From the IMG/VR virus record IMGVR_UViG_3300029705_006930: a stretch of 64,000 bases of DNA; one strand, written 5' to 3'. Positions 110 to 56,749 of this stretch are shown piece after piece. The DNA comes from a virus. Taxonomy: Duplodnaviria; Heunggongvirae; Uroviricota; Caudoviricetes. Each line of letters opens with the position of its first letter. The first letter of the stretch is position 1. The notes beneath the pieces were generated by a model. The model was given only the letters and a program-made list of their open reading frames with translations, searched no databases and was not told the origin of the DNA. The translations under genes were made by a program, and so were the position numbers.

Positions 110-1441
110 CTATATCTCATTTTCAATCTCCTCATCTTCATCGTTATATCGTATCGGACTACCTACGGGAAGCATCTCTAAAAATGCTGCTCCAGGCAAC
201 CAATATTTACTTCCATCATTTGTTCTTTTTGCAACTGAAAAATGTATGTGTGCTATGCGTCCTAAATAATCATCTCTGTGTTCCCAAAATTCTTTGCGTT
301 CTTCATCGCTATATCCAAGAGGCAGCACGACGTTGCTACCTTTATAATCAACTATAAAACTCTGCAGTATATCTTCATTTTCTTTTTTTGTGTAATCAAC
401 TATCATCAAATCTGCTTCATGCATTTGTCTTAGGTATAAGAAACTTTCACTGTTCTGTCGGTATTTATATAAGTCATAATCAAGATTAACTAAAATTCCT
501 GCGTATCCTTTTTCTTTGGCTACTCTGAATGCTTTTAAAATATTTCCTCTGTAACGTCCATTAAATAAAATCGGGGCAAGTTGTATATGTTCGGTAGGTG
601 TAAAATTCGTCTCTAAAAATGTTCGTCGGTCTTTATATATGTTTTTACATGTCTTACGGTTAAATTCTTTCAAAGATAATATGTCATAGATATAAAATAT
701 AATGTCACTTTTATCGCGCTCTGGCAGTCGGACTATCCATCGCTCTTTCATTCGGCGGTCATAAGGGGAGAGGTCTTTTGCATCCTCACCTTTATAAACA
801 AGTTCGCCATCAAATACCACTTCATCAAACGGCAAGTCATTAAATTCCTGCAAGAGTTCATCGAAGCCCTCAAGGACAATGCCGAAGCGTGTATACATTC
901 TTGCTTCGCCACATTCTTTGATAACAGCGCAGCGGGTGCCATTGTACCAACCGGAAACTGTGAACTGTCGCTGACGCACATAGTCTTCGTTACCATAGTA
1001 CAGCCCCGGCATCATCAATGGGATTTCATAAACAGTTCCCGCGCCATATACTGTATTGACCTGTTTGGCTGAAACATTTATTTCAAGGTCTCTCAGCACC
1101 GCATCAATCAAAAAGTCGTGGAGCTCAGCGGGGTAGAGGGTAAGAGAACCATGTATCTTTGCCACAGCTTTTTTATTACCCGCCCCCATATATGTCAGAT
1201 ATTCAAGCAGGTCATCACCTTCGCCTGTCACAAACGGCACAACGTCTTCGGCTGTAATTTCGGACGGCGCCCATTTATCAAAGATAAGGAAACGGCTTAA
1301 CCCAAGACGCGTTTTCCCAAACTGATACAATAAAAAGTCTGTCCACTTGGTATTTGTTGCATTACGGCGCAATATGCGTATTTTTTCATCATAAGATGTT
1401 GTGGCCGCCAACGCATCTGCAATTTGTTTAATTTCGTGTAT
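110..1441 (-). CDS. ATP-dependent DNA ligase-like protein with degenerate catalytic motifs (pseudo-ligase paralog of 55427-56749)
   Basis: Collinear with the ligase at 55427. VVFDGELV (motif III), IIFYIYDIL and the OB-domain end LGYSDEERKEFW are kept. Motif I reads SGWYNGTR (Lys to Trp), motif IV AGILVN (Glu to Ala) and motif V FLYLR. Start is set at ATA 1441, which lies 8 nt after GGGGG; the track's TTG at 1411 has no SD. Confidence 0.6.
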   Translation of the reverse strand: MHEIKQIADALAATTSYDEKIRILRRNATNTKWTDFLLYQFGKTRLGLSRFLIFDKWAPSEITAEDVVPFVTGEGDDLLEYLTYMGAGNKKAVAKIHGSLTLYPAELHDFLIDAVLRDLEINVSAKQVNTVYGAGTVYEIPLMMPGLYYGNEDYVRQRQFTVSGWYNGTRCAVIKECGEARMYTRFGIVLEGFDELLQEFNDLPFDEVVFDGELVYKGEDAKDLSPYDRRMKERWIVRLPERDKSDIIFYIYDILSLKEFNRKTCKNIYKDRRTFLETNFTPTEHIQLAPILFNGRYRGNILKAFRVAKEKGYAGILVNLDYDLYKYRQNSESFLYLRQMHEADLMIVDYTKKENEDILQSFIVDYKGSNVVLPLGYSDEERKEFWEHRDDYLGRIAHIHFSVAKRTNDGSKYWLPGAAFLEMLPVGSPIRYNDEDEEIENEI

Positions 1442-2620: not shown

Positions 2621-3442
2621 CTACCCATTTAATGCGCTGTCAATACTGTCCGCCATCGCATTAATTTCGCCCTGTGTTATTGTAAGGTATGTTTTTGTTA
2701 CGCGCTGGTCACTGTGCTTGTACTTTGCCTGCAAGATGTCCATAACACTGTCGTTGTTCATTGTTTTGCGCGCTGTGTATCCGTATGTTTTGCGCAGTGT
2801 ATGTGTTGCCACGTTCTGTGTGAGGCCCGCCGCCTTTGCACCTTTCTTTAAAATGTCCCACATTTGGTGCAGGCTCATTTGCCCGCCATTGTCACTTTTC
2901 TGGGACTTGATAAGGTAGTCGCTCATTGTATAGTTGCCGTTGAGATGTTCAATGTACATTTCAATGGCTTTTTTTGCGCCCGCTGTTATTTTGTTGCGAT
3001 TGTACTTGCCGGTCTTTTGTTCGTACACATCATAGTAATCTTTTACTGTACCATCCTCATTGAGAACGTCACTGATGCGCGCTCTGAGCAGGTCACTGCC
3101 TCTGTCCCCAATGGTGCAGCCAAACACTACCATCATATAATTGCGGTACTTGTGTCGGCCCCCATGTTCAAGGAAGTAGTTTGCGAGACGCTGAAATTCG
3201 TCCGCGCTGTAAAGAGGCTCTGCACTCTGTGCCTTTTTCACGCCATTGCTTTTGTAAGGCGACGCTGTTCTTGGTGCACGCTGTTTTGGCGCTGGCTTTG
3301 CTGCGGCCATTGCCTGAGCCACTGCATTTGCTATGATGCTCTGGAGCTCGTCCTGTGTCATTTGGAGCTTTGGTGCTGCCGCCTGTGCAGGAAAGTTGAT
3401 TGTATTATTCTGTACGTTTTGTTCTTTTGGCTGAGCGTTCAT
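2621..3442 (-). CDS. int: tyrosine recombinase / phage integrase (small, 273 aa)
   Basis: Catalytic-domain motifs are present: GDRGSDLLRARISDV (Arg), ATHTLRKTYGY (H-x-x-R) and HSDQRVTKTYL (His and the Tyr nucleophile). GGAGG SD. Confidence 0.8.
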   Translation of the reverse strand: MNAQPKEQNVQNNTINFPAQAAAPKLQMTQDELQSIIANAVAQAMAAAKPAPKQRAPRTASPYKSNGVKKAQSAEPLYSADEFQRLANYFLEHGGRHKYRNYMMVVFGCTIGDRGSDLLRARISDVLNEDGTVKDYYDVYEQKTGKYNRNKITAGAKKAIEMYIEHLNGNYTMSDYLIKSQKSDNGGQMSLHQMWDILKKGAKAAGLTQNVATHTLRKTYGYTARKTMNNDSVMDILQAKYKHSDQRVTKTYLTITQGEINAMADSIDSALNG

Positions 3443-3589
3443 AGGTGCCTCCTTGTTTGGATTTTTGTTTCCTCTTTTATTGTCTATATTATACCATGAG
3501 AGGGGCTCTTTGATAACGGGGTTTTTGAAAAAACCAAAGAACTTTTTTAAATTTTTTGTGGCGCTTTATATATGTTAATGTATATAAGG

Positions 3590-4200
3590 AAAGGTTGATG
3601 CGGTTGTTGCGGGGCAGTGTGATTTGGCGCAAAATTAGGCGATTTTTAGGGTGTTTGCAATTGTGTAAGGTCTGGTGTTGGAAATTTGGAAAGGTGTCTT
3701 AATGCCTGAATTTGAGGCTCTGGTGGGGTTATTCTATCACAGTGCTGACGCACTGTGGCGTCGCTGTGCTCCTTTATCTTATCAACGATGAAATGTTTGT
3801 TATTATGTTGCGCGAGAGAGGGTGTGGGGCGCGAAATTTGGGGGCCGGAGAGGTGGGAGGCGCGGTTTTGGGGCGAAATTGGGGCCCGGGTGGCCGGGGC
3901 TAAAATGGGCGTTTCCGGGGGTGTTTTGAGGGGTGTTTGGATAAGTTGCACAAAAATAGAAAAGCCACAGCCGGCTCTGTATGGGGCTAGCTGTGGTTCT
4001 TGTTGTTTATGGGCGTGATTTTGTTGTTTTTATAGTGTTTTGTGGCAAAAATGGTGAAAAAATGTGTAAAAAGGCGCGAAAATGCGTCAAAATGTGTGAT
4101 TTTTGATGATTTTTGGGTGGATTTGGTGTGGAATCAGGGCGAAATGGTGTGGAATGTTGTGTTTGGAGGGTGTTGTGGGGGTGAAAAGTGGACAAATATT
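3590..4200 (+). repeat. GT-rich, C-poor non-coding tract with at least 10 degenerate GAAAWTGKG repeats and clustered G4-5 runs
   Basis: Repeat examples: gcgaaatttggggg (3832), gcgaaattgggg (3873), taaaatgggcg (3901), aaaaatggtg (4047), aaaaatgtg (4058), gaaaatgcg (4078), caaaatgtgtg (4088), gcgaaatggtgtgg (4139). Seven G runs of 4 or more fall between 3824 and 3935. Composition is unlike the flanks. Confidence 0.6.
3964..4010 (+). terminator. putative intrinsic terminator inside the GT-rich tract
   Basis: CCACAGC (3965-71) pairs with GCTGTGG (3990-96), followed by ttcttgttgttt. Confidence 0.45.
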
Positions 4201-4390
4201 GCTTTTTATGAGCCGAGAGTGAGATATAGCGACGCGTAGCTTATTATATACATTAAATCTGTCGCAAAGTCAAAATATCCCCCTACGGCAGTTTAAACCG
4301 CTTTATATCGGTAAATATCAACCTTTGTGAAAAGTTGATATTTTTTGTACAAAATTTTTCGATTTTTCAAAAATCGGACGCTTGTTGCTA

Positions 4391-4419
4391 TTGACAATCT
4401 GTCGCTCAGGATTTACAAT
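4391..4419 (+). promoter_or_regulatory. sigma-70-type promoter TTGACA-17 nt-TACAAT
   Basis: TTGACA at 4391-96, a 17-nt spacer, then TACAAT at 4414-19. Confidence 0.6.
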
Positions 4420-4424
4420 TTTAA

Positions 4425-4505
4425 GTGTAAACCGACAAGTTTACACCTACAATTCAATATATCTGTTGTGATTGTTCAAAGGGGGGTACAGATACACAAT
4501 CACAA
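4425..4505 (+). promoter_or_regulatory. two inverted repeats in the leader of the sigma-like gene (operator or 5'UTR hairpins)
   Basis: GTGTAAAC-N6-GTTTACAC (4425-46) sits at the predicted +1. TTGTGATTGT...ACAATCACAA follows at about 4464-4505. Confidence 0.5.
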
Positions 4506-4545
4506 AATCACACACTATTCAATATTTAAAGGAAGGTATTTATCT

Positions 4546-5241
4546 ATGAAAAAACTCACAAGAAAACAGCTTAAAGCAATAAAAAACACATCAAGCTACA
4601 AATATTTTGAACAATTGAAAACCCTTAAAGGCTCAATGCCGGCAGACAGCAAAAAAACCTATATAGAGCCAAATTCAGACCTTGAAAAATTCGCAAAATT
4701 GCAAGTTATGACCTTAAACAAATATATCCGCCAAGACGGCAAGGGACACAACTTGGCAGCACAAGTTTTGCAAGATTTACAACAGCAAGCTTGTTTGCTT
4801 ATTCTGGAAAACCCTTTAAGCCTTGACTGCTTTACAACAGAACAAGATAAACAGACAGAACAACAGCAACAAGCATTTAAGGCGGTTAAAAATGGTTTAT
4901 ATAGGTATTATTATCACAACTATACAAGCCGCAGCACATCTAAAATTCACAATAACCCGTCAAGTTACATTGCAACAGCTACATATCAAGCAACCGACGA
5001 TATCGGCAAAGATGCACGCGACAGCTATCAAATGGACCTTTACAAATTACATCTGGATGCAATTTTGACAATTTTAACAACGGATGAAAAATACATCTTT
5101 AATGGTTTATTTGTTGAAAACTTAACACAAAAACAACTTGCCGAAAAACTCAATAAATCACAAACTTATGTAGCAAAAACACTTGCAAATATCCGTAGCA
5201 AAATCAAAGCAAATGACCTTGATACACCGATAAACAATTAA
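4546..5241 (+). CDS. sigma-70 region-4-like HTH transcription factor (possible phage sigma factor)
   Basis: Start ATG 4546 after GGAAGG. The C-terminus LTQKQLAEKLNKSQTYVAKTLANIRSKIK resembles a region-4 HTH. Confidence 0.5.
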   Translation: MKKLTRKQLKAIKNTSSYKYFEQLKTLKGSMPADSKKTYIEPNSDLEKFAKLQVMTLNKYIRQDGKGHNLAAQVLQDLQQQACLLILENPLSLDCFTTEQDKQTEQQQQAFKAVKNGLYRYYYHNYTSRSTSKIHNNPSSYIATATYQATDDIGKDARDSYQMDLYKLHLDAILTILTTDEKYIFNGLFVENLTQKQLAEKLNKSQTYVAKTLANIRSKIKANDLDTPINN

Positions 5242-5951: not shown

Positions 5952-6053
5952 GTAAGCGAATAAGCTCAATAAAAAGTTTGTTCTCTTACAAGATTGTACA
6001 CTCGGTACAGTCTCATTGTAAACATACGCTACATATTCCAAGGAGTAACAATT

Positions 6054-6920
6054 ATGAAACTTAACGAAAAGAAAAACGAAATTTTGTCCGCTATTTCCGC
6101 ACTTAACAAGTTGCTTGTAAACAACGAAAGCAAAAAAGCCGATATCGACAAGGCTCTTGAAAACATCCAGAGCGAAATCAAAGCCTACAATGCCGAAAGA
6201 ACAAGGCTCACTTTTGTTGGGTTGGCTCAGACTGATGAACCTGTTAAAAACGCAATCATTCAGTTGAATTTTGACATCATCAAACTGAAAACAAACAAAG
6301 ACAAGGACACAGATAAAGTGTCATATGAACTTGTAAATGCGAAAAAACAAATCGAATTGCTTGAATTTTCAAAGTATCTCGGTAAAGCAAGTTTTGCAGA
6401 CGAAAACTGGAAATACAAAGTGGAAAAATTCAATCAGCTTATCACATTCAAAGCGGTAAAAGATTTGAATGGCGATATGAACACAATCGCAAAAAGTTTC
6501 TACATCAGCAAACTTGCTGAAAGTGTTGATTTGGGCAAAACACCAACATCAAACACACAGGTTCTCAAACAGTTGCAGACTGTTGTGGACGCAATCATTC
6601 ACGAAAACAAAAGCGAGAATGATGACACAAACAAATTCAAAGTACTGTCTCACGATGTTGCATACATCGTAAAATTGATGTGTAAACGTGCCGACAGCGG
6701 AAAAATCGTAATGCCAAAAGTTTCCTCAATGCACACATTGGTGATGGATGTACTTCACCGTATTGTATGCGACCTCGATTACAAAATCGAATATTCCAAG
6801 AAAAAGGAAGAAGAAACTGCACAGGCTGAAGCCGAAAATGAAATCGAAGCAGCTCAGGAAGAACCAAAAGCTGTAGATGAAAATGCTGAAGAAAAAACAG
6901 CAAAACCAAAAGCGAAATAA
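6054..6920 (+). CDS. hypothetical protein with Glu/Lys/Ala-rich C-terminal tail
   Basis: ATG 6054 lies 7 nt after AAGGAG. Monocistronic, sitting between two terminators. Confidence 0.7.
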   Translation: MKLNEKKNEILSAISALNKLLVNNESKKADIDKALENIQSEIKAYNAERTRLTFVGLAQTDEPVKNAIIQLNFDIIKLKTNKDKDTDKVSYELVNAKKQIELLEFSKYLGKASFADENWKYKVEKFNQLITFKAVKDLNGDMNTIAKSFYISKLAESVDLGKTPTSNTQVLKQLQTVVDAIIHENKSENDDTNKFKVLSHDVAYIVKLMCKRADSGKIVMPKVSSMHTLVMDVLHRIVCDLDYKIEYSKKKEEETAQAEAENEIEAAQEEPKAVDENAEEKTAKPKAK

Positions 6921-11913: not shown

Positions 11914-11942
11914 TTGACAAATTGATATGTAAAGTGTATTAT
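11914..11942 (+). promoter_or_regulatory. sigma-70-type promoter TTGACA-17 nt-TATTAT
   Basis: TTGACA at 11914-19 and TATTAT at 11937-42. Confidence 0.6.
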
Positions 11943-11948
11943 GTAGTT

Positions 11949-12080
11949 GAAATAACATACAGCTCATCTTTTTGAGACTGCTTTATTTTTTACAATAATA
12001 ACATACAAATCATCTTTTGTAGCTTTTAATCCTTGATTAAGGAAATATTTTTTTTAAGCAAATAACACACAAATCATCTG
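11949..12080 (+). promoter_or_regulatory. three direct copies of the 19-nt motif ATAACAYACARMTCATCT(T)
   Basis: Copies at 11952-11970, 11998-12016 and 12062-12079. Two further copies lie at 39956-39974 and 40011-40029. Confidence 0.7.
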
Positions 12081-12098
12081 TCAAAAGGAGAAATTGCA

Positions 12099-12224
12099 AT
12101 GTTACGTATTGTTAATGATAGGGGACACCTCCTCGCATATTGCGGAAACAAATTTCTTGTTTCGGCAGACAACGAGCGCGAAATGCAAAAAGAACTTGCA
12201 GAGCTCGGTTACACAATGACATAA
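12099..12224 (+). CDS. hypothetical 41-aa protein
   Basis: AAAGGAGAA SD. First gene after the motif array. Confidence 0.45.
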   Translation: MLRIVNDRGHLLAYCGNKFLVSADNEREMQKELAELGYTMT

Positions 12225-12280
12225 AGGCAAGCCGGCCTTTATATATACAAACACTATTTTTTATAAAAGGAGATTTTAAA

Positions 12281-12727
12281 ATGGCAAAACTTAATCTTAC
12301 AGCAAATGTGCTGTCCCTTGAATCCGCACTTAAACTCGAAGATATCAAAAACGCAATGCGTTGGTGTCCAGATGCTCTCACAGTTATGGACGAAAAAGGC
12401 GAAGAAGAACTCTTCTCTGTTGCTGCAGGTACTTCAAAAGGTTATATCTCACCATACGGCATCACATTTGCTGCTGCAACAGTTCGTGGTGGTAAAGCTT
12501 GCTACACACGCGAAGTTGCACCAGGCACAGAAATGAAAGATATTGCTGAAGTTGTGCTCGCTGAATATGACAAACCAAAAGCATATCTTGAAGTTGTTGA
12601 AGCTCAGGTTGCTGAAGCTCTCGCAAAAGTTGCTGAACGTAGAACAGCTATTATGGCTGAACTTGCTGGCGAATGCGAATGTCCAGACTGCACACCAGAC
12701 TGTCCAACAGCACAGGGCGAAGAATAA
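12281..12727 (+). CDS. hypothetical protein with C-terminal CxCxxCxxxC cluster (first gene of Ubl/JAB/E1 cassette)
   Basis: ATG 12281 after AAAGGAG. C-terminus GECECPDCTPDCP. Confidence 0.65.
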   Translation: MAKLNLTANVLSLESALKLEDIKNAMRWCPDALTVMDEKGEEELFSVAAGTSKGYISPYGITFAAATVRGGKACYTREVAPGTEMKDIAEVVLAEYDKPKAYLEVVEAQVAEALAKVAERRTAIMAELAGECECPDCTPDCPTAQGEE

Positions 12728-12850
12728 TCTTCGCCCAACCTAAACAAACTTATCCGCAATTTAACCCAATATTTTCCATTAACATTAACAAACTTTTAAA
12801 CCGAAATCGTTAACAAACAAACTTAAACACATAAAAGGAGATTAAATATT

Positions 12851-13078
12851 ATGCTTAGAATTTATGTTGGTACAAACACAAACCGTACAGCTTACACACT
12901 TTCCCCAGAAACAACCCTCAGAGCAGCTTTTGAAACTGCAGGCGTGAACTATGAAATGGGTACCGCAACTCTTGATGGTTCCACACTTCAGCCGGGCGAC
13001 CTTGACAAGTCTTTTGCAGACTTCGGCATCACAGGTACAGCTTACCTCCTGAGCATTGTTAAAGCAAACAACGCTTAA
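12851..13078 (+). CDS. ubiquitin-like / ThiS-MoaD-like beta-grasp protein (75 aa), C-terminus KANNA
   Basis: Its size, alternating pattern and the LDGSTLQPGDLD...YLLSIVK segment resemble ThiS/MoaD. It sits in an operon with JAB and E1. There is no terminal GG. Confidence 0.5.
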   Translation: MLRIYVGTNTNRTAYTLSPETTLRAAFETAGVNYEMGTATLDGSTLQPGDLDKSFADFGITGTAYLLSIVKANNA

Positions 13079-13093
13079 TTGATTTTACCTATA

Positions 13094-13115
13094 GGGGCGG
13101 GAGCAATCCTGCCCC
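13094..13115 (+). other. stable 9-bp hairpin with GCAA tetraloop between the Ubl gene and the next gene
   Basis: GGGGCGGGA-gcaa-TCCTGCCCC. Confidence 0.7.
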
Positions 13116-13139
13116 AATCTTTAAAGAGAGGAGCTCAGT

Positions 13140-14540
13140 ATGGCACACACATTTAAAAAATGGATGATAAAAGCCATTCCATATGACAACTTGTTTGACA
13201 TATCGGTGGACTTTGAGAATCCATTCCCGACCGATAATCGTCGCGATGCTACACTCGCGGCTGCATTTCACTGTTTGATTAAAGACAGAATTCCAGAGGG
13301 GGTTAATCGCATTGTAGTGCGTGATATCCACTCATATGACTGCAACGTGAGAGACATTTTTGACTATTATGAGGTTGAAAATGGTTTCAAAAGTTGTATT
13401 TTTTACTACGCAGATTGGGACAATGTGAATCTGCAGAGCAAAATTACATTGCCAAATGAATGGGAAGCTCAGGAAATTGCAAGCAAATTTACTGGATGTT
13501 ATGTTACAAATCACGTATCAAAACAATTGATGGTTATCTTTATTCCGAGCAACTATAACCTTGAAACTTGGCATAGACTTGGTGCATTGTTACCAAAATA
13601 TCCAGTGCTCGAGGATATGTGGGCAGCAAAACCACTTACCGAAGATGAACTCAAGATGTTGAAATCACTGTCAACAGACGGTGTAGATTTTGACACATAT
13701 ATAAAAGCGTGGATTGCGACACTCGACCTGCGCACATCCGCAATCAAAAAAATGTTCAACAAATTCATTATTGATAACATCGAGGAACAGATACGCAATG
13801 CCGAAGATAGACGTAGAAGCCTTGAAAACAATATCACAGACTATGCTGCGAGACTGGCAAGGCTGTATAGCGACCTTGACGGTGTTATTGAAATGATAAA
13901 CCGTCTTATGATAGGTGATGACACTGTTGAAGAAAAAGAAAAGAGACTTATCGAATTCTTGTTAACAAACAAAAATGTTGAGCCAATCAGACGTCGCAAT
14001 GACCGCGTTGAATTCAATGTTCACGCAGCAATTGACTGTTGGGATAACGATATGTTCTCATCTTATATCAATAATCACAACAGTTTATTGTATCGCCATA
14101 CAAGCAGATATTCATATGACCAGTTGAAACGTTTTTATGAGCAGGCATTGTTTGCCGGTCGCTTTAAAATTCAGGGCATTGCTAAATTTGAAATTGCAGC
14201 AACAGGTAATGTGAGACCAATTTCAAAAAATGGGCATTGGCCATCAGCTGAAATCGAAAACTGTATTCCAAATACACATGTGGATAAATTCACTTGTATT
14301 GGTAATCACAGACGTATGCTGGATGATGCTGCAAAAATTCGTGACTATGAACAGGCAATTTTGATTGCTATTCAGATTACACAGTCAGTTAACTGGTCGG
14401 ATGGTGCAGTTATGAATCACTTTATTCCTGAAGTGTTGCACTGTGAACGTCCAATTCTTACAGACAGAACAGGCAATACATACACTGTTGCACAGGTAAT
14501 AAGCATACTTGATGCCGAAATAAAGGAGGTTGAAAAATAA
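13140..14540 (+). CDS. hypothetical 466-aa protein of the Ubl cassette (central coiled coil, function unknown)
   Basis: GAGAGGAG SD. Overlaps the JAB gene as ATAATG. Confidence 0.7.
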   Translation: MAHTFKKWMIKAIPYDNLFDISVDFENPFPTDNRRDATLAAAFHCLIKDRIPEGVNRIVVRDIHSYDCNVRDIFDYYEVENGFKSCIFYYADWDNVNLQSKITLPNEWEAQEIASKFTGCYVTNHVSKQLMVIFIPSNYNLETWHRLGALLPKYPVLEDMWAAKPLTEDELKMLKSLSTDGVDFDTYIKAWIATLDLRTSAIKKMFNKFIIDNIEEQIRNAEDRRRSLENNITDYAARLARLYSDLDGVIEMINRLMIGDDTVEEKEKRLIEFLLTNKNVEPIRRRNDRVEFNVHAAIDCWDNDMFSSYINNHNSLLYRHTSRYSYDQLKRFYEQALFAGRFKIQGIAKFEIAATGNVRPISKNGHWPSAEIENCIPNTHVDKFTCIGNHRRMLDDAAKIRDYEQAILIAIQITQSVNWSDGAVMNHFIPEVLHCERPILTDRTGNTYTVAQVISILDAEIKEVEK

Positions 14541-15475
14541 TGAAACCAATAAGATTGACCGATGATGTAAAAGCGGCTATTCTTGATAAATTTGCAAAAC
14601 AGCTGAGCACGGTTGTACGTGCTTCAACTATTACATTCACACATACGCCAACAGTGGTAAGCACACCGTTAGGCAAAGATGAAAAAGTGCTGATTACTTA
14701 TACAGCAGAAGCATTCCGCAAGCAGCAGATGCTTATTCAGAGTTTTGACAGTGAAGTGGCTTGGCACGGTGTTGTTGAACGTGAAGATGCAAAGCATTTT
14801 ATTATTACAGATATCGTAGTATATCCCCAGACTGTTACCGGCTCAACTGTTGAGATGGACGAAGACAAATATGCTCTTTGGACAATTCAGTTCGGTCGTG
14901 AACACGGCGAAGAAACATTCCAGAAACTGCGTATGCAGGGACATAGCCACGTGAATATGGAATGTTTTGCAAGTGGTACAGACTCTAAACACCAGGATGA
15001 CATCTTGGCAACAACTGACCCAAATGGGTTCTATATTTTCATTATTGCCAATAAAAAAGGCAAATTCTGGAGCACTATTTTCGACCTCGAAGCAAATGTT
15101 CAGTATGAAAATGCTGACATCGAAATCGAGTATGAGGAAGATGAGTACGATGAATTTGTAAGTGCAGCAGAAAGTGTGGTTGTAAAAAAGACTTATACAC
15201 CACCTTACAACTATGGCAATGGCTATCACAACAACGGAGCAGGGTATTCATACGGGGCAAGCGCTTATTCTCAGAAGCCACCTCAGACTCCGCCTATGCC
15301 AGTGCTTCCGACAAATACACAGCCAAAAACAAGCACAAACGAAACAAACACAAAGGCAAACACAAACACAAAAAAGGACGATAAATCCATTGAAGAAGAT
15401 ATCACCAATCTTATTCAGATGTCATTGAACGATATGGAATGGGATGAAGTTGGTGGATGGACAAGCAAAATGTAA
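14540..15475 (+). CDS. JAB/MPN+ (JAMM) metallopeptidase with Pro/Thr/Asn-rich C-terminal region
   Basis: DSEVAWHG (Glu) followed by HSHVNMECFASGTD, which fits H-x-H-x7-S-x2-D. Confidence 0.8.
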   Translation: MKPIRLTDDVKAAILDKFAKQLSTVVRASTITFTHTPTVVSTPLGKDEKVLITYTAEAFRKQQMLIQSFDSEVAWHGVVEREDAKHFIITDIVVYPQTVTGSTVEMDEDKYALWTIQFGREHGEETFQKLRMQGHSHVNMECFASGTDSKHQDDILATTDPNGFYIFIIANKKGKFWSTIFDLEANVQYENADIEIEYEEDEYDEFVSAAESVVVKKTYTPPYNYGNGYHNNGAGYSYGASAYSQKPPQTPPMPVLPTNTQPKTSTNETNTKANTNTKKDDKSIEEDITNLIQMSLNDMEWDEVGGWTSKM

Positions 15476-15484
15476 GGAGAAATT

Positions 15485-16174
15485 ATGGACTTAAGTAAAT
15501 CACTTGACTGGTTTAATCCAGACAGCGTTTCGGAACGCATACATATTATCGGATGCGGTAGTGTAGGTAGTACAGTTGTGGAACTGTTGGCAAGATTCGG
15601 TCTTACAAAGTTCACTCTGTATGATTTTGACCTTGTTGAACCTCACAATATCGCAAACCAGATGTTCAGAAAAACGGACATTGGTAAAACAAAAGTTGAA
15701 GCATTGCAGCAGATTGTATGTGAAATCAATCCAGAGGCGGGCAAAGATATTAAACTTGAACCAGAAGGTTGGCACGGACAGCAGTTGTCTGGCTATGTAG
15801 TTCTTGCTGTTGATAGCATTGAATTGCGTAAAAAGATTTGTGAAGGTTTGCAGATGAATATCTTTGTTAAAGCTGTGTTTGATTTCCGTACAAGTTTGCT
15901 CAACGCACAGCATTATGCAGCCAATTGGCAGGACAAAAAACATCGTGATGACCTCATTGCAACAATGCAGTTCACCGATGAAGAAGCTGCGGCTGAAAAC
16001 CCAGTATCAGCGTGTGGTGTAACACTTGGTGTCGCACCAACAGTAAGACTGATATGCACACTAGGCGTAAGCAATATGATGAACTTTTTCAGAGAAAAGA
16101 AATTGAAAAAAGTTGTATTGGCAGACGCATTTAATTTTGATGCTGACCCTATGGTATTACCTATGGGTCAATAA
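15485..16174 (+). CDS. ThiF/MoeB/E1-like adenylyltransferase
   Basis: IIGCGSVGSTVVELLARFGL...LYDFDLVEPHNIANQ is a Rossmann GxGxxG and adenylation motif. Confidence 0.8.
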   Translation: MDLSKSLDWFNPDSVSERIHIIGCGSVGSTVVELLARFGLTKFTLYDFDLVEPHNIANQMFRKTDIGKTKVEALQQIVCEINPEAGKDIKLEPEGWHGQQLSGYVVLAVDSIELRKKICEGLQMNIFVKAVFDFRTSLLNAQHYAANWQDKKHRDDLIATMQFTDEEAAAENPVSACGVTLGVAPTVRLICTLGVSNMMNFFREKKLKKVVLADAFNFDADPMVLPMGQ

Positions 16175-16216
16175 TACACAATAAGAGAAATGTTTATGGT
16201 GAATATTGCACATTGT

Positions 16217-16500
16217 ATGGCAAGCTTTTGCTGTTAGCAGAAGTAAAGAAATGGTAGAGAACATAGAGGCAGGCGCTTAAGGAGCACGCTGAGGTGATTC
16301 CTAAGTACTGCAGCTTCTTGCATCCGACGAGCTCTGAAAAGGTAGGTTTAACAGGAGGATTGGATTACTTACAAGTGAAATTAACCAGTTCAAACCGTAA
16401 AGCTCATCTGAAATTAACGATAAATCCCAGATTTGCATCTCTTTTATCCGGGAATGAAGGGCTTAAAACTATAGCTAGACCATAAACAAGATAGGGAGGA
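16217..16500 (+). ncRNA. structured non-coding leader upstream of the RT (module A)
   Basis: Hairpin at 16225-43, GAAATGGTAG at 16248, enclosing stem 16217-24/16317-23. No SD-led ORF. Confidence 0.5.
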
Positions 16501-16504
16501 CATT

Positions 16505-17860
16505 ATGGTTTATATCACATATCCAGCACCTAACAAATTTCATCAGATTACATTTGAAGAAATGATGTCGGGCAATGTTAATACAGATAAATTAAGAATT
16601 TTAGGCGGACATAATACGCTTACTTTGCATCTTAACGATGTACCTGCAAACTTAAAAGGTCAGACTTCTGTACGCAAAATGATTGCAGATTTGCAGTATT
16701 TTGTAGGTGTATATTATGACACACTGATGCCACAGATAAAAGAATTTGAGAAGCTTTCAGATGCTCAGCGTCGCAGCGTCAAACAGCGTGACAAGATTGA
16801 AAATTATTTTGAACAGATGGGCGCAACTGCAAATGATGAAGACTTGCAGAAAATCACTGAACAGGTAGATGCGCTGCAGTGTGAAGTTGCAGAACAGCAG
16901 TATAAATATGCTTACTATACATTCGATTTGCGCAAAAGTTCAGCGCCGGAACACATTCCATTGTGGCGACTGCCAAAAGAATACAGACGTACAATCAATG
17001 CTCCGAACATACATCTTAAAAATGCGCTATATGAACTTAAAGAACTGTTTGAAAATATGATGATACGTACATATCATACTGCATCATTTGCGTATGTTAA
17101 ACATCGTGGAACTTTGGATGCTGTAAAACGTCATCAGAGCTGGGAAAGCAAATGGTTTGCAAAGTTTGACTTTTCAGATTTCTTTGGTAGCACAACAATT
17201 GACTTTGTTATGCAACAGTTCTCTCAAATATATCCGTTTAATATGATTTGTGCATATAAAGATGGTAAAGAAGCTCTTTATAAAGCATTGCAGTTGTGTT
17301 TTTTGGACGGTGGACTTCCACAGGGCACACCTATTAGTCCTCTCATCACAAACATAATGATGATACCATTTGACCACGCAATGTCAAAAGCTCTTAAAGA
17401 ATTTAAATATCCAAACAAACACGGTAGTGAACGTTTTGTGTATACAAGATATGCTGATGACCTGCTTATCAGTTGCCGTGTGGATTTTAAAGTGGAAATT
17501 ATTCAGGCATTTATTCTGGAAACTTTAAAATCAATGAATGCGCCTTTTAGCCTTAACGTTAAGAAAACTCGTTACGGTTCTAGTGCAGGTAGCAACTGGA
17601 ATCTTGGGGTGATGCTTAACAAAGACAATAAAATTACAATCGGTGCAGAAAACAAGCGCAGACTTAAAGCTTCTTTGAATTCATTTATCCTTGATATGAA
17701 GAATGAAAAACCTTGGGATATTTCTATGGTGTATAGACTCAGAGGTCAGATTTCTTATTATCGTAATGTGGAAAGGGAAGCAACAAATAACATCATTGCA
17801 GCGATGAACACAAAATATGGTGTTGATGCAGAAGCAATGATGAAATCTATTATAAGTTAA
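16505..17860 (+). CDS. reverse transcriptase, retron/UG(DRT)/Abi-like, with about 190-aa N-terminal extension
   Basis: KFDFSDFF, LPQGTPISPLITN, YTRYADDLLIS, KKTRYG, LGVML and a thumb-like RLRGQISYYRNV occur in order. GGGAGGA SD. Confidence 0.85.
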   Translation: MVYITYPAPNKFHQITFEEMMSGNVNTDKLRILGGHNTLTLHLNDVPANLKGQTSVRKMIADLQYFVGVYYDTLMPQIKEFEKLSDAQRRSVKQRDKIENYFEQMGATANDEDLQKITEQVDALQCEVAEQQYKYAYYTFDLRKSSAPEHIPLWRLPKEYRRTINAPNIHLKNALYELKELFENMMIRTYHTASFAYVKHRGTLDAVKRHQSWESKWFAKFDFSDFFGSTTIDFVMQQFSQIYPFNMICAYKDGKEALYKALQLCFLDGGLPQGTPISPLITNIMMIPFDHAMSKALKEFKYPNKHGSERFVYTRYADDLLISCRVDFKVEIIQAFILETLKSMNAPFSLNVKKTRYGSSAGSNWNLGVMLNKDNKITIGAENKRRLKASLNSFILDMKNEKPWDISMVYRLRGQISYYRNVEREATNNIIAAMNTKYGVDAEAMMKSIIS

Positions 17861-17879
17861 TTTAATTTTTATATATTGA

Positions 17880-18790
17880 ATATCACAGTCATTGTGAAGT
17901 GTTGATGTTATCGGCACTAACGAAATGGTAAGAAAGTATGGCAGGAAGGCCCGCAGGTTCATGATGAAGACGCGTGCGAGCTTACAGCTCCAGCATAAAA
18001 ATTAGAAATGCTGGTACAATGAAAAGGAAGAAAATCATGAACGAAAGCCATACTTTCCAACATCCACAAAACCACGAATTTAAAACGCTTCATTACTCCG
18101 CGACCCTCCGCCAGGAGGGCCCGGGCGCGGTAAAGCGTCAAATAAATAATTGAGAATATATAAAAAAACTTTATTGAATATCTTTAAATTTGTACATAAA
18201 TTTAAGAACTGTTGCTGTTAGCAGCAGTGTCAAACGAACAGGATAAATAAAGAAATACAAATTTCTTTATTTAAATAACTTCTTAGCGTCGTAAGGCGCG
18301 ATGCTCCGACATCGCTCATGACGACGCCAAAGTTATTGAGAATAAAGTTAAAAAAATAATAAGAAAAATAAACAGTGTATATTTGCATAGCAAAGCTATT
18401 GATGTAATCAGTAGTACAGAAATGGTAGGAAAGATTACACGGGACGGTGTCGCCGGTGAGGAGCCACCTCCTTTGCAAACCCCTGCAATATTTCTAAAAC
18501 CTAATTAAAACTATGTCCGAATGGTCAAACATAACAGGAGGACTGAGAAACATCACCTGAAGGATACCAACTGAACCCCCAGTTCAGATGACACGACAGC
18601 TGGAGAAATCTAGACCCATGGGATGGTGATTCAACATTAAATTACAATTCAGACTGTTTATTGCTTTATAGTTTTTGCCAAGCTACGAAAACTCCAAATA
18701 ATGAGTAGTGTGTGACATAAAAGCCAAGCCTCGTCAACTCCCTTTCGGGGCTTGGTAAAGACTATAAAACAAACAATTTAAGTAAAGGAG
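17880..18790 (+). ncRNA. about 0.9 kb structured non-coding region downstream of the RT (modules B, D, C plus long hairpins)
   Basis: Module hairpins at 17899-917, 18209-27 and 18396-414. Long hairpins at 18086-18138, 18245-72 and 18273-18335. No convincing ORF. Confidence 0.5.
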
Positions 18791-18797
18791 AATATAT

Positions 18798-19187
18798 ATG
18801 ACAAAAGCAGAAAAAGCAGCTGGCAGGCTGTTAAGAAGAATGAATAAAGAATACTTGGGTGAGGTAGAAGCATTGATAAAAATGTGTCGACAGCCTAAAG
18901 TTGACCTTTCTGAAATCAGTATTCAGTCCTACAAAGTAACAGTTTTGGCAGAGCTCAAAGACGAATTTTTTGCAATCAAAATGACAGAAGATGAAATGGA
19001 GTATATTTATGACCTCTATGCTTGTCTTGATGCTCCTTTGAATTATTTGTGGGAATGTTGGCGTGATGATGAAGGCTATAACATTTCTGACTCCATTGGT
19101 GATTTAGTTTCTGATATTATAAGCCAGGATATCGAATGTATTTCAGAAGATAACTTAATCGAGGTGAATATGGATGAGACTGAATGA
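18798..19187 (+). CDS. hypothetical protein
   Basis: AAAGGAG SD. Confidence 0.65.
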   Translation: MTKAEKAAGRLLRRMNKEYLGEVEALIKMCRQPKVDLSEISIQSYKVTVLAELKDEFFAIKMTEDEMEYIYDLYACLDAPLNYLWECWRDDEGYNISDSIGDLVSDIISQDIECISEDNLIEVNMDETE

Positions 19188-38353: not shown

Positions 38354-38420
38354 AAAACCTATTATCAAAAGATGGTTTGTGTGTTATTATTATAGTAGAA
38401 AACAGGAAAGGAGAAAGTGT

Positions 38421-39931: not shown

Positions 39932-39955
39932 AGGCGAGCTTCTAAATCACTCAAA

Positions 39956-40029
39956 TAACATACAAACCATCTTTTAATATAGGTTATGTATGTTCTTTTT
40001 TAAAACTTGTATAACATACAAATCATCTT
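39956..40029 (+). promoter_or_regulatory. two more copies of the 19-nt ATAACATACAAAYCATCTT motif
   Basis: Copies at 39956-39974 and 40011-40029. GTATGTT (39988-94) can pair with the first copy. Confidence 0.7.
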
Positions 40030-55426: not shown

Positions 55427-56749
55427 ATGAGACAAATATTAAATATGAGAGAAACATTAACGCGAGTAAGTTTTTTATTTAAGACTATTGCGAGTACACC
55501 AAGGACAACTGAAAAGAAACGATTGTTGCGTTATATCAACAGCTCAGAACCAGAGAATGTATGTGAAATGTTTCTGTATACTTTACGATTTTTATTGGAT
55601 AACAATGTAACAACAGGTATCGATAAAAAGAAACTCAAAGCTCAAATTAATATGCCTGATATTAATTTTCCAATGAAATGGTCACATATGTTGGAATATA
55701 TCAAAGAAAACAATACAGGAAGGCATGAAGATATTCGCAGAGCACAGCTCTTTATCGAAGATAATCCCGAGAATGCGGAATTTATTGCTGATATTATAAC
55801 AAAATCATATAGGTTAGGACTGACAGCCAAAACAGTAAATGAAGTTTATGAAGATTTTATTCCTGTTTGGTCAGTACAGCAGGCATATCCTTTGGAAAAA
55901 TATCCGCTTAAGGACGGAGAATGGTTTTCTTTATCACAAAAGCTTAATGGGTTCCATGCCTCATATTACAAGGGTAAATTAATAAGCCGACAAGGAAAAG
56001 AAATCAAAGGTTGTAAGCACGTTATTAACGCAATAAACAACTTTAAACTTCAAGATTTCTTTATTGATGGCGAGCTTATCCGGCGTAATGATATTGAACC
56101 TCATCTCTCAGACGAAGAAAATTTTCGACAGACTGTTTCAATTGCGAATTCTGATTCTGACGACAAAACAGACCTGTGTTTTATTTATTATGATATCATT
56201 CCAGCTGATGATTTTGACAAAGGCAAATGTGAAATAACATATCGCCAACGTCTTAATGACATGCATAAATTAAACAGTATAATTCTGCAGACTCCATTTT
56301 ATAAAACGTTTCATATGGTGAAATGGTTTTATCACGGCAATGACCAAAAGAAAATTCAGTTTTGGCTTGATTATGCAAATGAAAATGATATGGAGGGTCT
56401 TATGTTAAATAAGGATACTGTATATCAATGCAAACGTAATTCAGGCATTTTAAAGGTAAAAAGTTGGAAACATTGTGACCTTAGAGTAACGGGCGTTGAA
56501 GAAGGCGATGGCAAATACAAAGGAACCCTTGGAAAACTGATTGTGGACTATAAAGGAAATACTTTGGGATTAAGTGGAATGAGCGATGAGGAACGTTATA
56601 TATTTTGGAATAATCCACAGGACATAGTTGGGAAGATTGTGCTCGTTAAATATAAACAGGAAACAAAAGACAAAACAGGTAAACGTAGTTTGCAGTTCGC
56701 AACCTACCAAGGTGTTAGAACTGATAAAGATGAAGTCAGCTACAATTAA
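55427..56749 (+). CDS. ATP-dependent DNA ligase
   Basis: Motif I SQKLNGFH, motif III FIDGELI, motif IV EGLMLNK, motif V ILKVK, plus an OB domain. Confidence 0.8.
   Translation: MRQILNMRETLTRVSFLFKTIASTPRTTEKKRLLRYINSSEPENVCEMFLYTLRFLLDNNVTTGIDKKKLKAQINMPDINFPMKWSHMLEYIKENNTGRHEDIRRAQLFIEDNPENAEFIADIITKSYRLGLTAKTVNEVYEDFIPVWSVQQAYPLEKYPLKDGEWFSLSQKLNGFHASYYKGKLISRQGKEIKGCKHVINAINNFKLQDFFIDGELIRRNDIEPHLSDEENFRQTVSIANSDSDDKTDLCFIYYDIIPADDFDKGKCEITYRQRLNDMHKLNSIILQTPFYKTFHMVKWFYHGNDQKKIQFWLDYANENDMEGLMLNKDTVYQCKRNSGILKVKSWKHCDLRVTGVEEGDGKYKGTLGKLIVDYKGNTLGLSGMSDEERYIFWNNPQDIVGKIVLVKYKQETKDKTGKRSLQFATYQGVRTDKDEVSYN

Follow-up and report, generated by a model that had tools for sequence, protein, structure and literature searches.

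Introduction

Retrons, some of which are carried on prophages, make msDNA (multicopy single-stranded DNA), which is a branched RNA–DNA molecule. They are tripartite, being made up of a reverse transcriptase (RT), an msr–msd non-coding RNA (ncRNA) as well as an effector, and have been sorted into 13 types; the msr part of the RNA holds one to three hairpins and the msd part a long stable stem-loop (Mestre et al. 2020, PMC7736814). Bil systems, of type I and type II, are bacterial defences that conjugate an ISG15-like ubiquitin-like protein (Ubl) (Chambers et al., PMC10557695; Hor et al., bioRxiv 10.1101/2023.09.04.556158). Type II BilA has a universally conserved reactive C-terminal glycine, and the E1 enzyme BilD is a multi-domain protein with an inactive adenylation domain (IAD), an active adenylation domain (AAD) and a mobile catalytic-cysteine (CYS) domain (PMC10557695). 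Here, we analyzed a 64,000-nucleotide stretch of tailed phage DNA (Caudoviricetes; IMG/VR record IMGVR_UViG_3300029705_006930), hereafter called the window, and in it a block of genes in which a Ubl conjugation module is followed by a retron-like RT with several ncRNAs.

We consider it probable, although well short of certain, that this block is one conserved, self-contained system, in which a retron-like RT and its ncRNAs are combined with an obligate Bil-like Ubl conjugation module (p148, Ubl, an E2-like protein, a JAB peptidase and E1). Its carriers are temperate or large tailed phages and prophages of gut Clostridia. When compared to described retrons, the partner of the RT is here a complete Ubl/E1/E2-like/JAB pathway, which is absent from the 13 described types (PMC7736814); the text of Mestre et al. 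2020 (PMC7736814) uses none of the words ubiquitin, ThiF and JAB. When compared to Bil, the cassette appears from its genes to work in the same manner, yet it fails two Bil-defining features, the C-terminal glycine and the multi-domain E1.

Co-occurrence of the Ubl module and the reverse transcriptase

Related loci were collected with the RT as seed in IMG/VR (61 loci), with E1 as seed (29 more) and with an E1-alignment seed in GTDB genomes (42 close relatives), giving 132 in total. The GTDB relatives are mostly metagenome-assembled genomes (MAGs) labelled as Clostridia (Oscillospiraceae, Christensenellaceae, Lachnospiraceae and others) and derived from human or animal guts, with one coming from an isolate. 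L125 lies in a prophage of Clostridiales Family XIII bacterium PM5-7. Among the phage contigs found with the RT, all 59 loci with enough sequence carried E1 no more than 3 kb upstream. When the search was reversed and E1 served as the seed, the RT was present within 3 kb downstream in 27 of 27 such loci on phage contigs and in 27 of 29 in genomes and MAGs. The Ubl module and the RT were adjacent in about 113 of 115 informative loci, with constant gene order and strand (p148, Ubl, E2-like, JAB, E1, ncRNA, RT), and identity to the window proteins was 31–60% for the RT and 46–61% for E1. A previous sequence-only reading of the window had proposed that the Ubl/JAB/E1 operon and the RT–ncRNA locus form a composite system, and had set beforehand, as a test, a survey of whether RT homologs elsewhere neighbor JAB, E1 and Ubl genes. 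The survey was positive in both directions and supports the composite system, with a putative functional link between its halves.

The layout described in that reading was also borne out in the window (Table 1). The block is unidirectional, with p148, Ubl, the E2-like gene, JAB, E1 and RT all on the plus strand; the gap between E1 and RT is exactly 330 nt; no plus-strand terminator-like site was found from E1 to 18797; and the next gene led by a Shine-Dalgarno site does start at 18798. Its list of parts was right for Ubl, JAB, E1, RT and RNAs but missed p148, the E2-like gene and the retron type of the RT.

Table 1. Position of the cassette features in the window.
Feature	Position	Strand	Description
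Sigma-70-like promoter	11914..11942	+	TTGACA-17-TATTAT; 11 of 12 consensus matches; consensus match alone
19-nt motif, three copies	11951..12079 (at 11951, 11997, 12061)	+	AATAACAYACARMTCATCT
p148	12281..12727	+	Fold without known relatives; starts M-A-K; conserved Ubl partner
Ubl	12851..13078	+	Ubiquitin-like protein, 75 aa, beta-grasp fold; conserved C-terminus K-x-D-N-A, NNA in the window
E2-like protein (candidate E2)	13140..14540	+	466 aa; N-terminal domain poorly modelled; C-terminal UBC/RWD-like domain
JAB	14540..15475	+	JAB/JAMM metallopeptidase, deubiquitinase-like; JAMM residues; best PDB match of profile is Rpn11, E = 7.6e-4
E1	15485..16174	+	Minimal ThiF-type E1, 229 aa, one adenylation domain; invariant Cys177
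ncRNA unit U	16191..16488	+	a1 TGTTTATGGT (16191-16200), G16201, hairpins H1 and H2 (motif match 16222-16256), a2 ACCATAAACA (16479-16488)
RT	16505..17860	+	Retron-like reverse transcriptase, YADD, 451 aa; Pfam RVT_1 3.7e-18
ncRNA unit D1	17866..18166	+	a1 TTTTTATATATT, G17878, H1, H2 (motif match 17896-17930), a2 AATATATAAAAA
ncRNA unit D2	18167..18349	+	183 nt, shorter; a1 AACTTTATT, G18176, H1, H2 (motif match 18206-18240), a2 AATAAAGTT
ncRNA unit D3	18367..18661	+	a1 AATAAACAGT, G18377, H1, H2 (motif match 18393-18427), a2 ACTGTTTATT
Long imperfect hairpin	18661..18772	+	30-nt arms; closes the noncoding block; includes promoter-like site for the next gene (TTGCCA-16-AATAAT, 18675-18702)

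Conservation did not extend to the flanks, apart from one gene that is shared in part. Among the 99 plus-strand open reading frames (ORFs) of the window, wide sharing with the 132 related loci was limited to the cassette genes; one of the other 92 was common to 26 loci and nine were common to one to five. No gene family 3' of the RT is conserved across lineages, and the RT is therefore left without another candidate effector. Divergence of the RT correlated with that of E1 (Mantel r = 0.36, p = 0.026) and of JAB (r = 0.34, p = 0.017), at least as strongly as the divergence of E1 did with that of JAB.

A retron-like reverse transcriptase with several structured RNAs

By its sequence, the RT is closest to retron RTs. 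Its best model matches were the PADLOC retron RT_II-A model (2e-41) and the NCBIfam retron St85 RT model (1e-46), and weaker matches were obtained with the group II intron RT (3e-20) and Drt2 (1.6e-12) models. YADD, H210 and G368 are invariant in the family, which shares an N-terminal extension of ~80 aa that is specific to it. The window RT also has a private insertion of ~60 aa (residues ~72-130), helical and charged, which is absent in 21 of 21 aligned homologues.

The repeated structured RNAs claimed in the sequence-only reading proved to be four paralogous ncRNA units, one of 298 nt between E1 and RT and three 3' of the RT. All four are closed by a perfect a1/a2 terminal helix of 9–12 bp, and in each a1 is followed by a G, the sequence (A/T)ATAT and two hairpins, H1 and H2, with TGTTA or TGTAA in the H2 loop. 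Unit U ends 16 nt ahead of the RT start codon, D1 also holds a long GC-rich hairpin, and D2 was matched with E = 0.005, its a1 and a2 being taken by direct reading of the sequence. Long 3' stem-loops were predicted in U and D1 from the window sequence. The 937 nt of noncoding DNA between the RT and the next gene gave a folding z of -6.35, and unit U alone gave only -1.0.

We found no primary-sequence similarity between these RNAs and those of the relatives by blastn or nhmmer, but structure-aware comparison succeeded: the E1–RT spacers of 14 diverse loci align across a1, H1 and H2. The two 5' hairpins are conserved, and a covariation statistic computed for H2 reached 0.57 compared to 0.25 in shuffles, with 0 of 500 shuffles as high and a slide control that was best at 0. 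The base directly after a1 was G in 14 of 14 units examined, a position that we take to be that of the retron branching guanosine. When the longest perfect helix was used as the test, an a1/a2 helix of at least 9 bp was present in 12 of 21 non-redundant units across loci (p <= 0.05 each), with helix sequences that vary between loci; a whole-segment RNAduplex test tried earlier gave no discrimination.

A small H2 covariance model gave 47 matches (E <= 0.1) in 51 sources, and all 47 lay on the cassette strand and 3' of E1. Covariation of H2 in these matches was 0.59 compared to 0.29 in shuffles. Usually, one match is situated ahead of the RT and one to four behind it, at times with ORFs between, and a unit directly 3' of the RT in L064 shows the full a1-to-a2 architecture. 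Several ncRNAs per RT is a trait of the family.

One lineage (L034-L060; for example L035, 9112-11413) is arranged differently, with an RT that begins 13 nt past the E1 stop codon and a retron-like ncRNA of ~160 nt located 3' of the RT, between tRNA-Gln and tRNA-Leu/Met genes. In this ncRNA, the a1 sequence GGTATTGTGTA precedes a G and a hairpin whose loop is TGTTATT, and tRNA-processing enzymes might release the RNA.

Taken together, the features read from sequence and predicted folding are those expected of the architectural hallmarks of retron msr–msd RNA as set out by Mestre et al. (PMC7736814). As in retrons, an ncRNA closed by terminal inverted repeats lies immediately upstream of an RT closest to retron models, the G stands directly after a1, hairpins occupy the 5' msr-like part and predicted long stem-loops the 3' part of U and D1, and one conserved accessory module adjoins the RT. 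Unlike in retrons, several paralogous units accompany one RT (four here, and two to five model matches in many relatives), and the units are ~300 nt long.

The RT could instead belong to another class, such as that of diversity-generating retroelements (DGRs), group II introns or the DRT/Abi type, in which case the repeats would be template and variable repeats or intron RNA. DGRs are common in gut phages, and the RT does match the group II intron model; however, the retron models match far better (1e-46 vs 3e-20 and 1.6e-12), an Rfam scan of window positions 11–20 kb returned neither a group II intron nor any other family, and the RNA has the retron architecture of a1/a2 helix, G after a1 and 5' hairpins. 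The DGR reading was ruled out, as the window holds no pair resembling template and variable repeats and the variable bodies of the ncRNA units gave only chance matches elsewhere in the window. A distant search of INPHARED with the downstream RNAs found nothing. A DGR or another class of RT is essentially excluded.

A predicted Bil-like Ubl conjugation module

Most aligned Ubl homologues end in K-x-D-N-A, some with one to three additional residues, and no conserved C-terminal glycine was found among them. Several lineages have p148 joined in frame behind the Ubl, with the junction ...DNA|A(K/Y/C/S/Q), whereas free p148 begins M-A-K. A profile search returned 1485 members of the p148 family, the best 120 of which were all Ubl–p148 fusions of ~205 aa. 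No match to p148 was found in Pfam, NCBIfam, PADLOC or PHROG, and a fold search returned matches confined to its own uncharacterised family, in uncultured siphoviruses. Because of the Ubl C-termini, the DNA|A fusions and the M-A-K start of the free protein, the JAB peptidase is predicted to free the Ubl by cleavage after Ala75, the reactive terminus would be an alanine instead of a glycine, and p148 is a likely dedicated partner or substrate of the Ubl. Pre-processing of the Ubl by JAB is likewise implied by the C-terminal extensions and the Ubl–p148 fusions.

The 466-aa protein is probably an E2, an assignment that we make with moderate confidence from its family motif and a predicted model. 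Its homologues were recovered by a profile search, as a single-sequence search gave one protein, and those aligned are 427–531 aa long. The motif P377-N378-x-H380-x5-C386-x-G388 is invariant among them, with an Asn-to-Cys spacing that presumably agrees with the HPN...C motif of UBC enzymes. The C-terminal 200 residues were modelled with a predicted local distance difference test (pLDDT) score of 60–90, in the order helix, two strands, helical insert, two strands, a loop with the PN motif and the cysteine, and helices, which we take to fit the UBC fold. A long helix spans residues ~184-257 of this coiled-coil protein; when the family profile was compared to the PDB, it gave coiled-coil noise and nothing else.

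The JAB protein had no match in domain libraries, but its JAMM motif (E-HxH-S-D) is complete, with E72, H135, H137, S145 and D148 invariant in 22 homologues. The E1 matched Pfam ThiF (1.4e-20), NCBIfam ThiF and two defense models, PADLOC CBASS E1-E2 (3e-17) and 6A-MBL cap2_3 (1.4e-18), and in the PDB it matched UBA5, UBA1, MccB and Cap2. The glycine-rich loop GCGxxGS, the acidic and basic residues D47 and R135 of the active site, and C177 are invariant across 21 homologues, and in the 89 homologues recovered the protein is 222–258 aa long, with a single ThiF-like domain and Cys177 located within a short VSAC segment.

The module resembles BilABCD in its gene order of Ubl, E2, JAB and E1, in a beta-grasp Ubl encoded with the other three, in a JAMM peptidase predicted to pre-process the Ubl, and in conserved cysteines of the E1 and the E2-like protein. 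It differs in that the E1 is a single ThiF domain in place of the IAD, AAD and CYS domains of BilD, the Ubl ends in ...D-N-A, and the E2-like protein has a large N-terminal region in addition to its coiled coil. There is also p148, an additional and dedicated partner that in many cases is fused behind the Ubl, and the cassette is phage-encoded and linked to an RT and ncRNAs. The best defense-library matches of the E1 domain point to a second comparison, with Cap2/Cap3 of type II cyclic oligonucleotide-based antiphage signaling systems (CBASS) and with the 6A-MBL cap2_3 family. Cap2 activates the C-terminus of a partner protein, for which a Gly-Gly end is unnecessary, and Cap3, a JAB protein, reverses the conjugation. 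Unlike CBASS, the cassette has no CD-NTase or cyclic-nucleotide effector, its E1 and E2 are separate proteins, and a true beta-grasp Ubl is present.

Promoter region and phage context

The window comes from the genome of a phage or prophage, and almost all of its genes from ~4 kb on are on the plus strand. They include a DNA polymerase, a DnaB-like helicase, ribonucleotide reductase, a tyrosine integrase, a serine recombinase and two ATP-dependent DNA ligases, the latter on opposite strands at 110-1411 (-) and 55427-56749 (+). No tRNA genes were found in the window, and an INPHARED megablast with the cassette gave no near-identical phage. Positions 3001-4000 have a G+C content of 47.8%, compared to ~35% elsewhere, and a strong AT skew; this segment covers the end of the tyrosine integrase gene and intergenic DNA ahead of 4345, and may represent inserted foreign DNA or an attachment site.

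The promoter that the sequence-only reading placed ahead of the block is present, but the site is plausible rather than proven, because promoter-like sites as a class are not enriched in this region (33 found vs 29 expected). The three copies of the 19-nt motif said to open the block are also there; however, they do not mark the cassette, since the window holds six copies (0.01 expected) and three of them lie in intergenic DNA ~26 kb downstream of it, at 38370-38388 (-), 39954-39972 (+) and 40010-40028 (+). The motif is probably a phage operator or promoter element, and its distribution suggests that it co-regulates at least two transcription units across the phage. A 298-aa protein encoded at 4345-5241 (+), with a weak match to sigma-70 region 4 or a helix-turn-helix at its C-terminus, is a candidate phage transcription factor that might recognize this motif. 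Between the motifs and p148 there is a 41-aa ORF (12099-12224, +) that has a good Shine-Dalgarno site and a small hairpin behind it; a homologue of this ORF was found in none of the related loci.

The one gene outside the cassette that is shared more widely lies at 5994-6920 (+) and encodes a protein of ~288 aa, homologues of which are situated 5–9 kb upstream of E1 in 26 related loci. A single-protein scan with this gene found nothing. Seeding on it gave 71 phage loci, ~40 of which have the cassette within 10 kb, and 31 of which have no cassette gene within that distance. The cassette therefore looks dispensable and outside the phage core.

These observations bear on the possibility that the cassette serves the phage's own life cycle, for example through reverse-transcribed DNA that primes or regulates replication or a lysis–lysogeny switch, with Ubl tagging of p148 acting in maturation or timing. 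Such a role would suit the constant position of the cassette, which lies in the early region between a conserved phage gene on its upstream side and replication genes on its downstream side, as well as the 19-nt motif shared with the other transcription unit at 38–40 kb, the high prevalence of the cassette (single 90% clusters have hundreds of members) and p148 itself, a co-encoded, dedicated and substrate-like partner. We nevertheless regard it as unlikely. The conserved upstream gene occurs without the cassette in the 31 loci, the closest characterized relatives of both halves (retrons on the one hand, Bil and CBASS Cap2–Cap3 on the other) are conflict systems, and the ncRNA bodies mark no origin-like or gene-targeting sequence, since they match nothing else in the window.

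Discussion

Our data favor the view that the Ubl module and the RT with its ncRNAs are one conserved system, and several observations have to be set against it. In L110, an Oscillospiraceae MAG contig of 245 kb, Ubl, E2-like, JAB and E1 genes are present with no RT within 10 kb, and in L122 the RT is displaced to 7.5 kb downstream of E1. GC-rich terminator-like hairpins occur between E1 and the ncRNA in L063, L064, L071 and L075, just past the E1 stop codon; transcriptional coupling of the two halves may thus differ between phages, and a single transcription unit is no conserved property of the cassette. The homologue of the 5994-6920 gene upstream of E1 in 26 loci indicates some wider synteny, the linkage could come in part from vertical inheritance in one phage lineage, and the Mantel correlations are weak. 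The RT itself, with its extra N-terminal domain, departs from described retrons: it scored 159.5 bits with the NCBIfam retron St85 model, below the curated cut-off of 235, and its family has NLG for VTG and DAxKRH for NAxxH when aligned with the Ec86 RT sequence. Finally, known retron effectors are toxins, which a Ubl pathway is not in any obvious way, and msDNA production, Ubl conjugation and their coupling are predicted functions.

Some of these observations would also be expected if a Bil-like Ubl operon and a stand-alone retron merely lay side by side through the clustering of defense or accessory genes in phage genomes, being inherited together and having no joint function. The terminator-like hairpins, the RT-less L110, the displaced RT of L122 and the wider synteny all fit such an arrangement, and stand-alone msr–msd/RT cassettes are known (Mestre et al. 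2020, PMC7736814). On the other hand, the two modules are adjacent and in the same order in 113 of 115 informative loci, across RTs that have diverged to 31–60% identity and with flanks that turn over; with the exception of L110, neither module turned up by itself; the RT has no other conserved partner; and its divergence tracks that of E1 and JAB. We therefore find two independent systems quite unlikely, and hold to a single system.

Such a system is probably used in virus–host or virus–virus conflict, a role suggested by analogy with its relatives, and could provide superinfection exclusion, defense of the lysogen or counter-defense. All steps of the mechanism that we propose are drawn from homology. 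The small E1 would adenylate the Ubl C-terminus (...D-N-A) and take the Ubl onto Cys177, from which it would pass to Cys386 of the coiled-coil E2-like protein and then be ligated to a target. p148 may serve as a dedicated partner or substrate, the joint probably being formed at its N-terminal Ala, and JAB would trim Ubl precursors and Ubl–p148 fusions after ...DNA and also reverse conjugates. The RT would recognize H1 and H2 of each ncRNA and use the 2'-OH of the conserved G that follows a1 for priming, so that one msDNA would be made per unit, four in this phage.

How the RT–ncRNA half is coupled to the Ubl module we infer by analogy. As in other tripartite retrons, the RT–msDNA complex could be a sensor or regulator that gates Ubl conjugation, with the Ubl pathway as the acting part; by analogy with Bil and CBASS Cap2/Cap3, that action would be the tagging of proteins in virus-related conflict. 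A further step, which we put forward tentatively and think more doubtful than the existence of one system, is that msDNA and Ubl tagging form one machine, in which the msDNAs from the ncRNA array act directly on Ubl conjugation, by gating it, guiding it or even being its recipient. One example would be an RT–msDNA complex that binds the E2-like protein or p148 and lets it go once an invader has altered the msDNA; at the extreme, nucleic acid itself would be what the Ubl is ligated to. If true, phages would be using a system of protein tagging that is controlled by nucleic acid.

In the literature searched, with incomplete coverage of journals, we found no description of a retron or RT paired with Ubl, JAB/JAMM, ThiF/E1 or Bil, and the pairing was also absent from the paper on retron classification and from the papers covered that deal with Bil, bacterial Ubls, jumbo phages or the gut virome; a prior description cannot be excluded. 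Within kinds of system that are known, we regard as new the unprecedented partner module and the multiple ncRNAs of the retron-like element and, in the Bil-like pathway, the minimal E1, the Ubl terminus that is not a glycine and the candidate substrate fused to the Ubl.

Retrons and bacterial Ubl systems, two new branches of prokaryotic immunity that are among the most studied, have hitherto been treated as unrelated. A strictly conserved phage cassette that joins both would give retrons a partner of a new kind, an enzymatic pathway that tags proteins and not a toxin. The minimal E1, the E2-like protein and the non-glycine Ubl, together with p148 as a genetically fused substrate candidate, make it easier to ask what the tag does. 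One retron-type RT would serve several paralogous ncRNAs, and a multi-template RT could be of interest for the development of retron-based DNA-writing tools. Among phages of gut Clostridia in humans and animals, the cassette is abundant.

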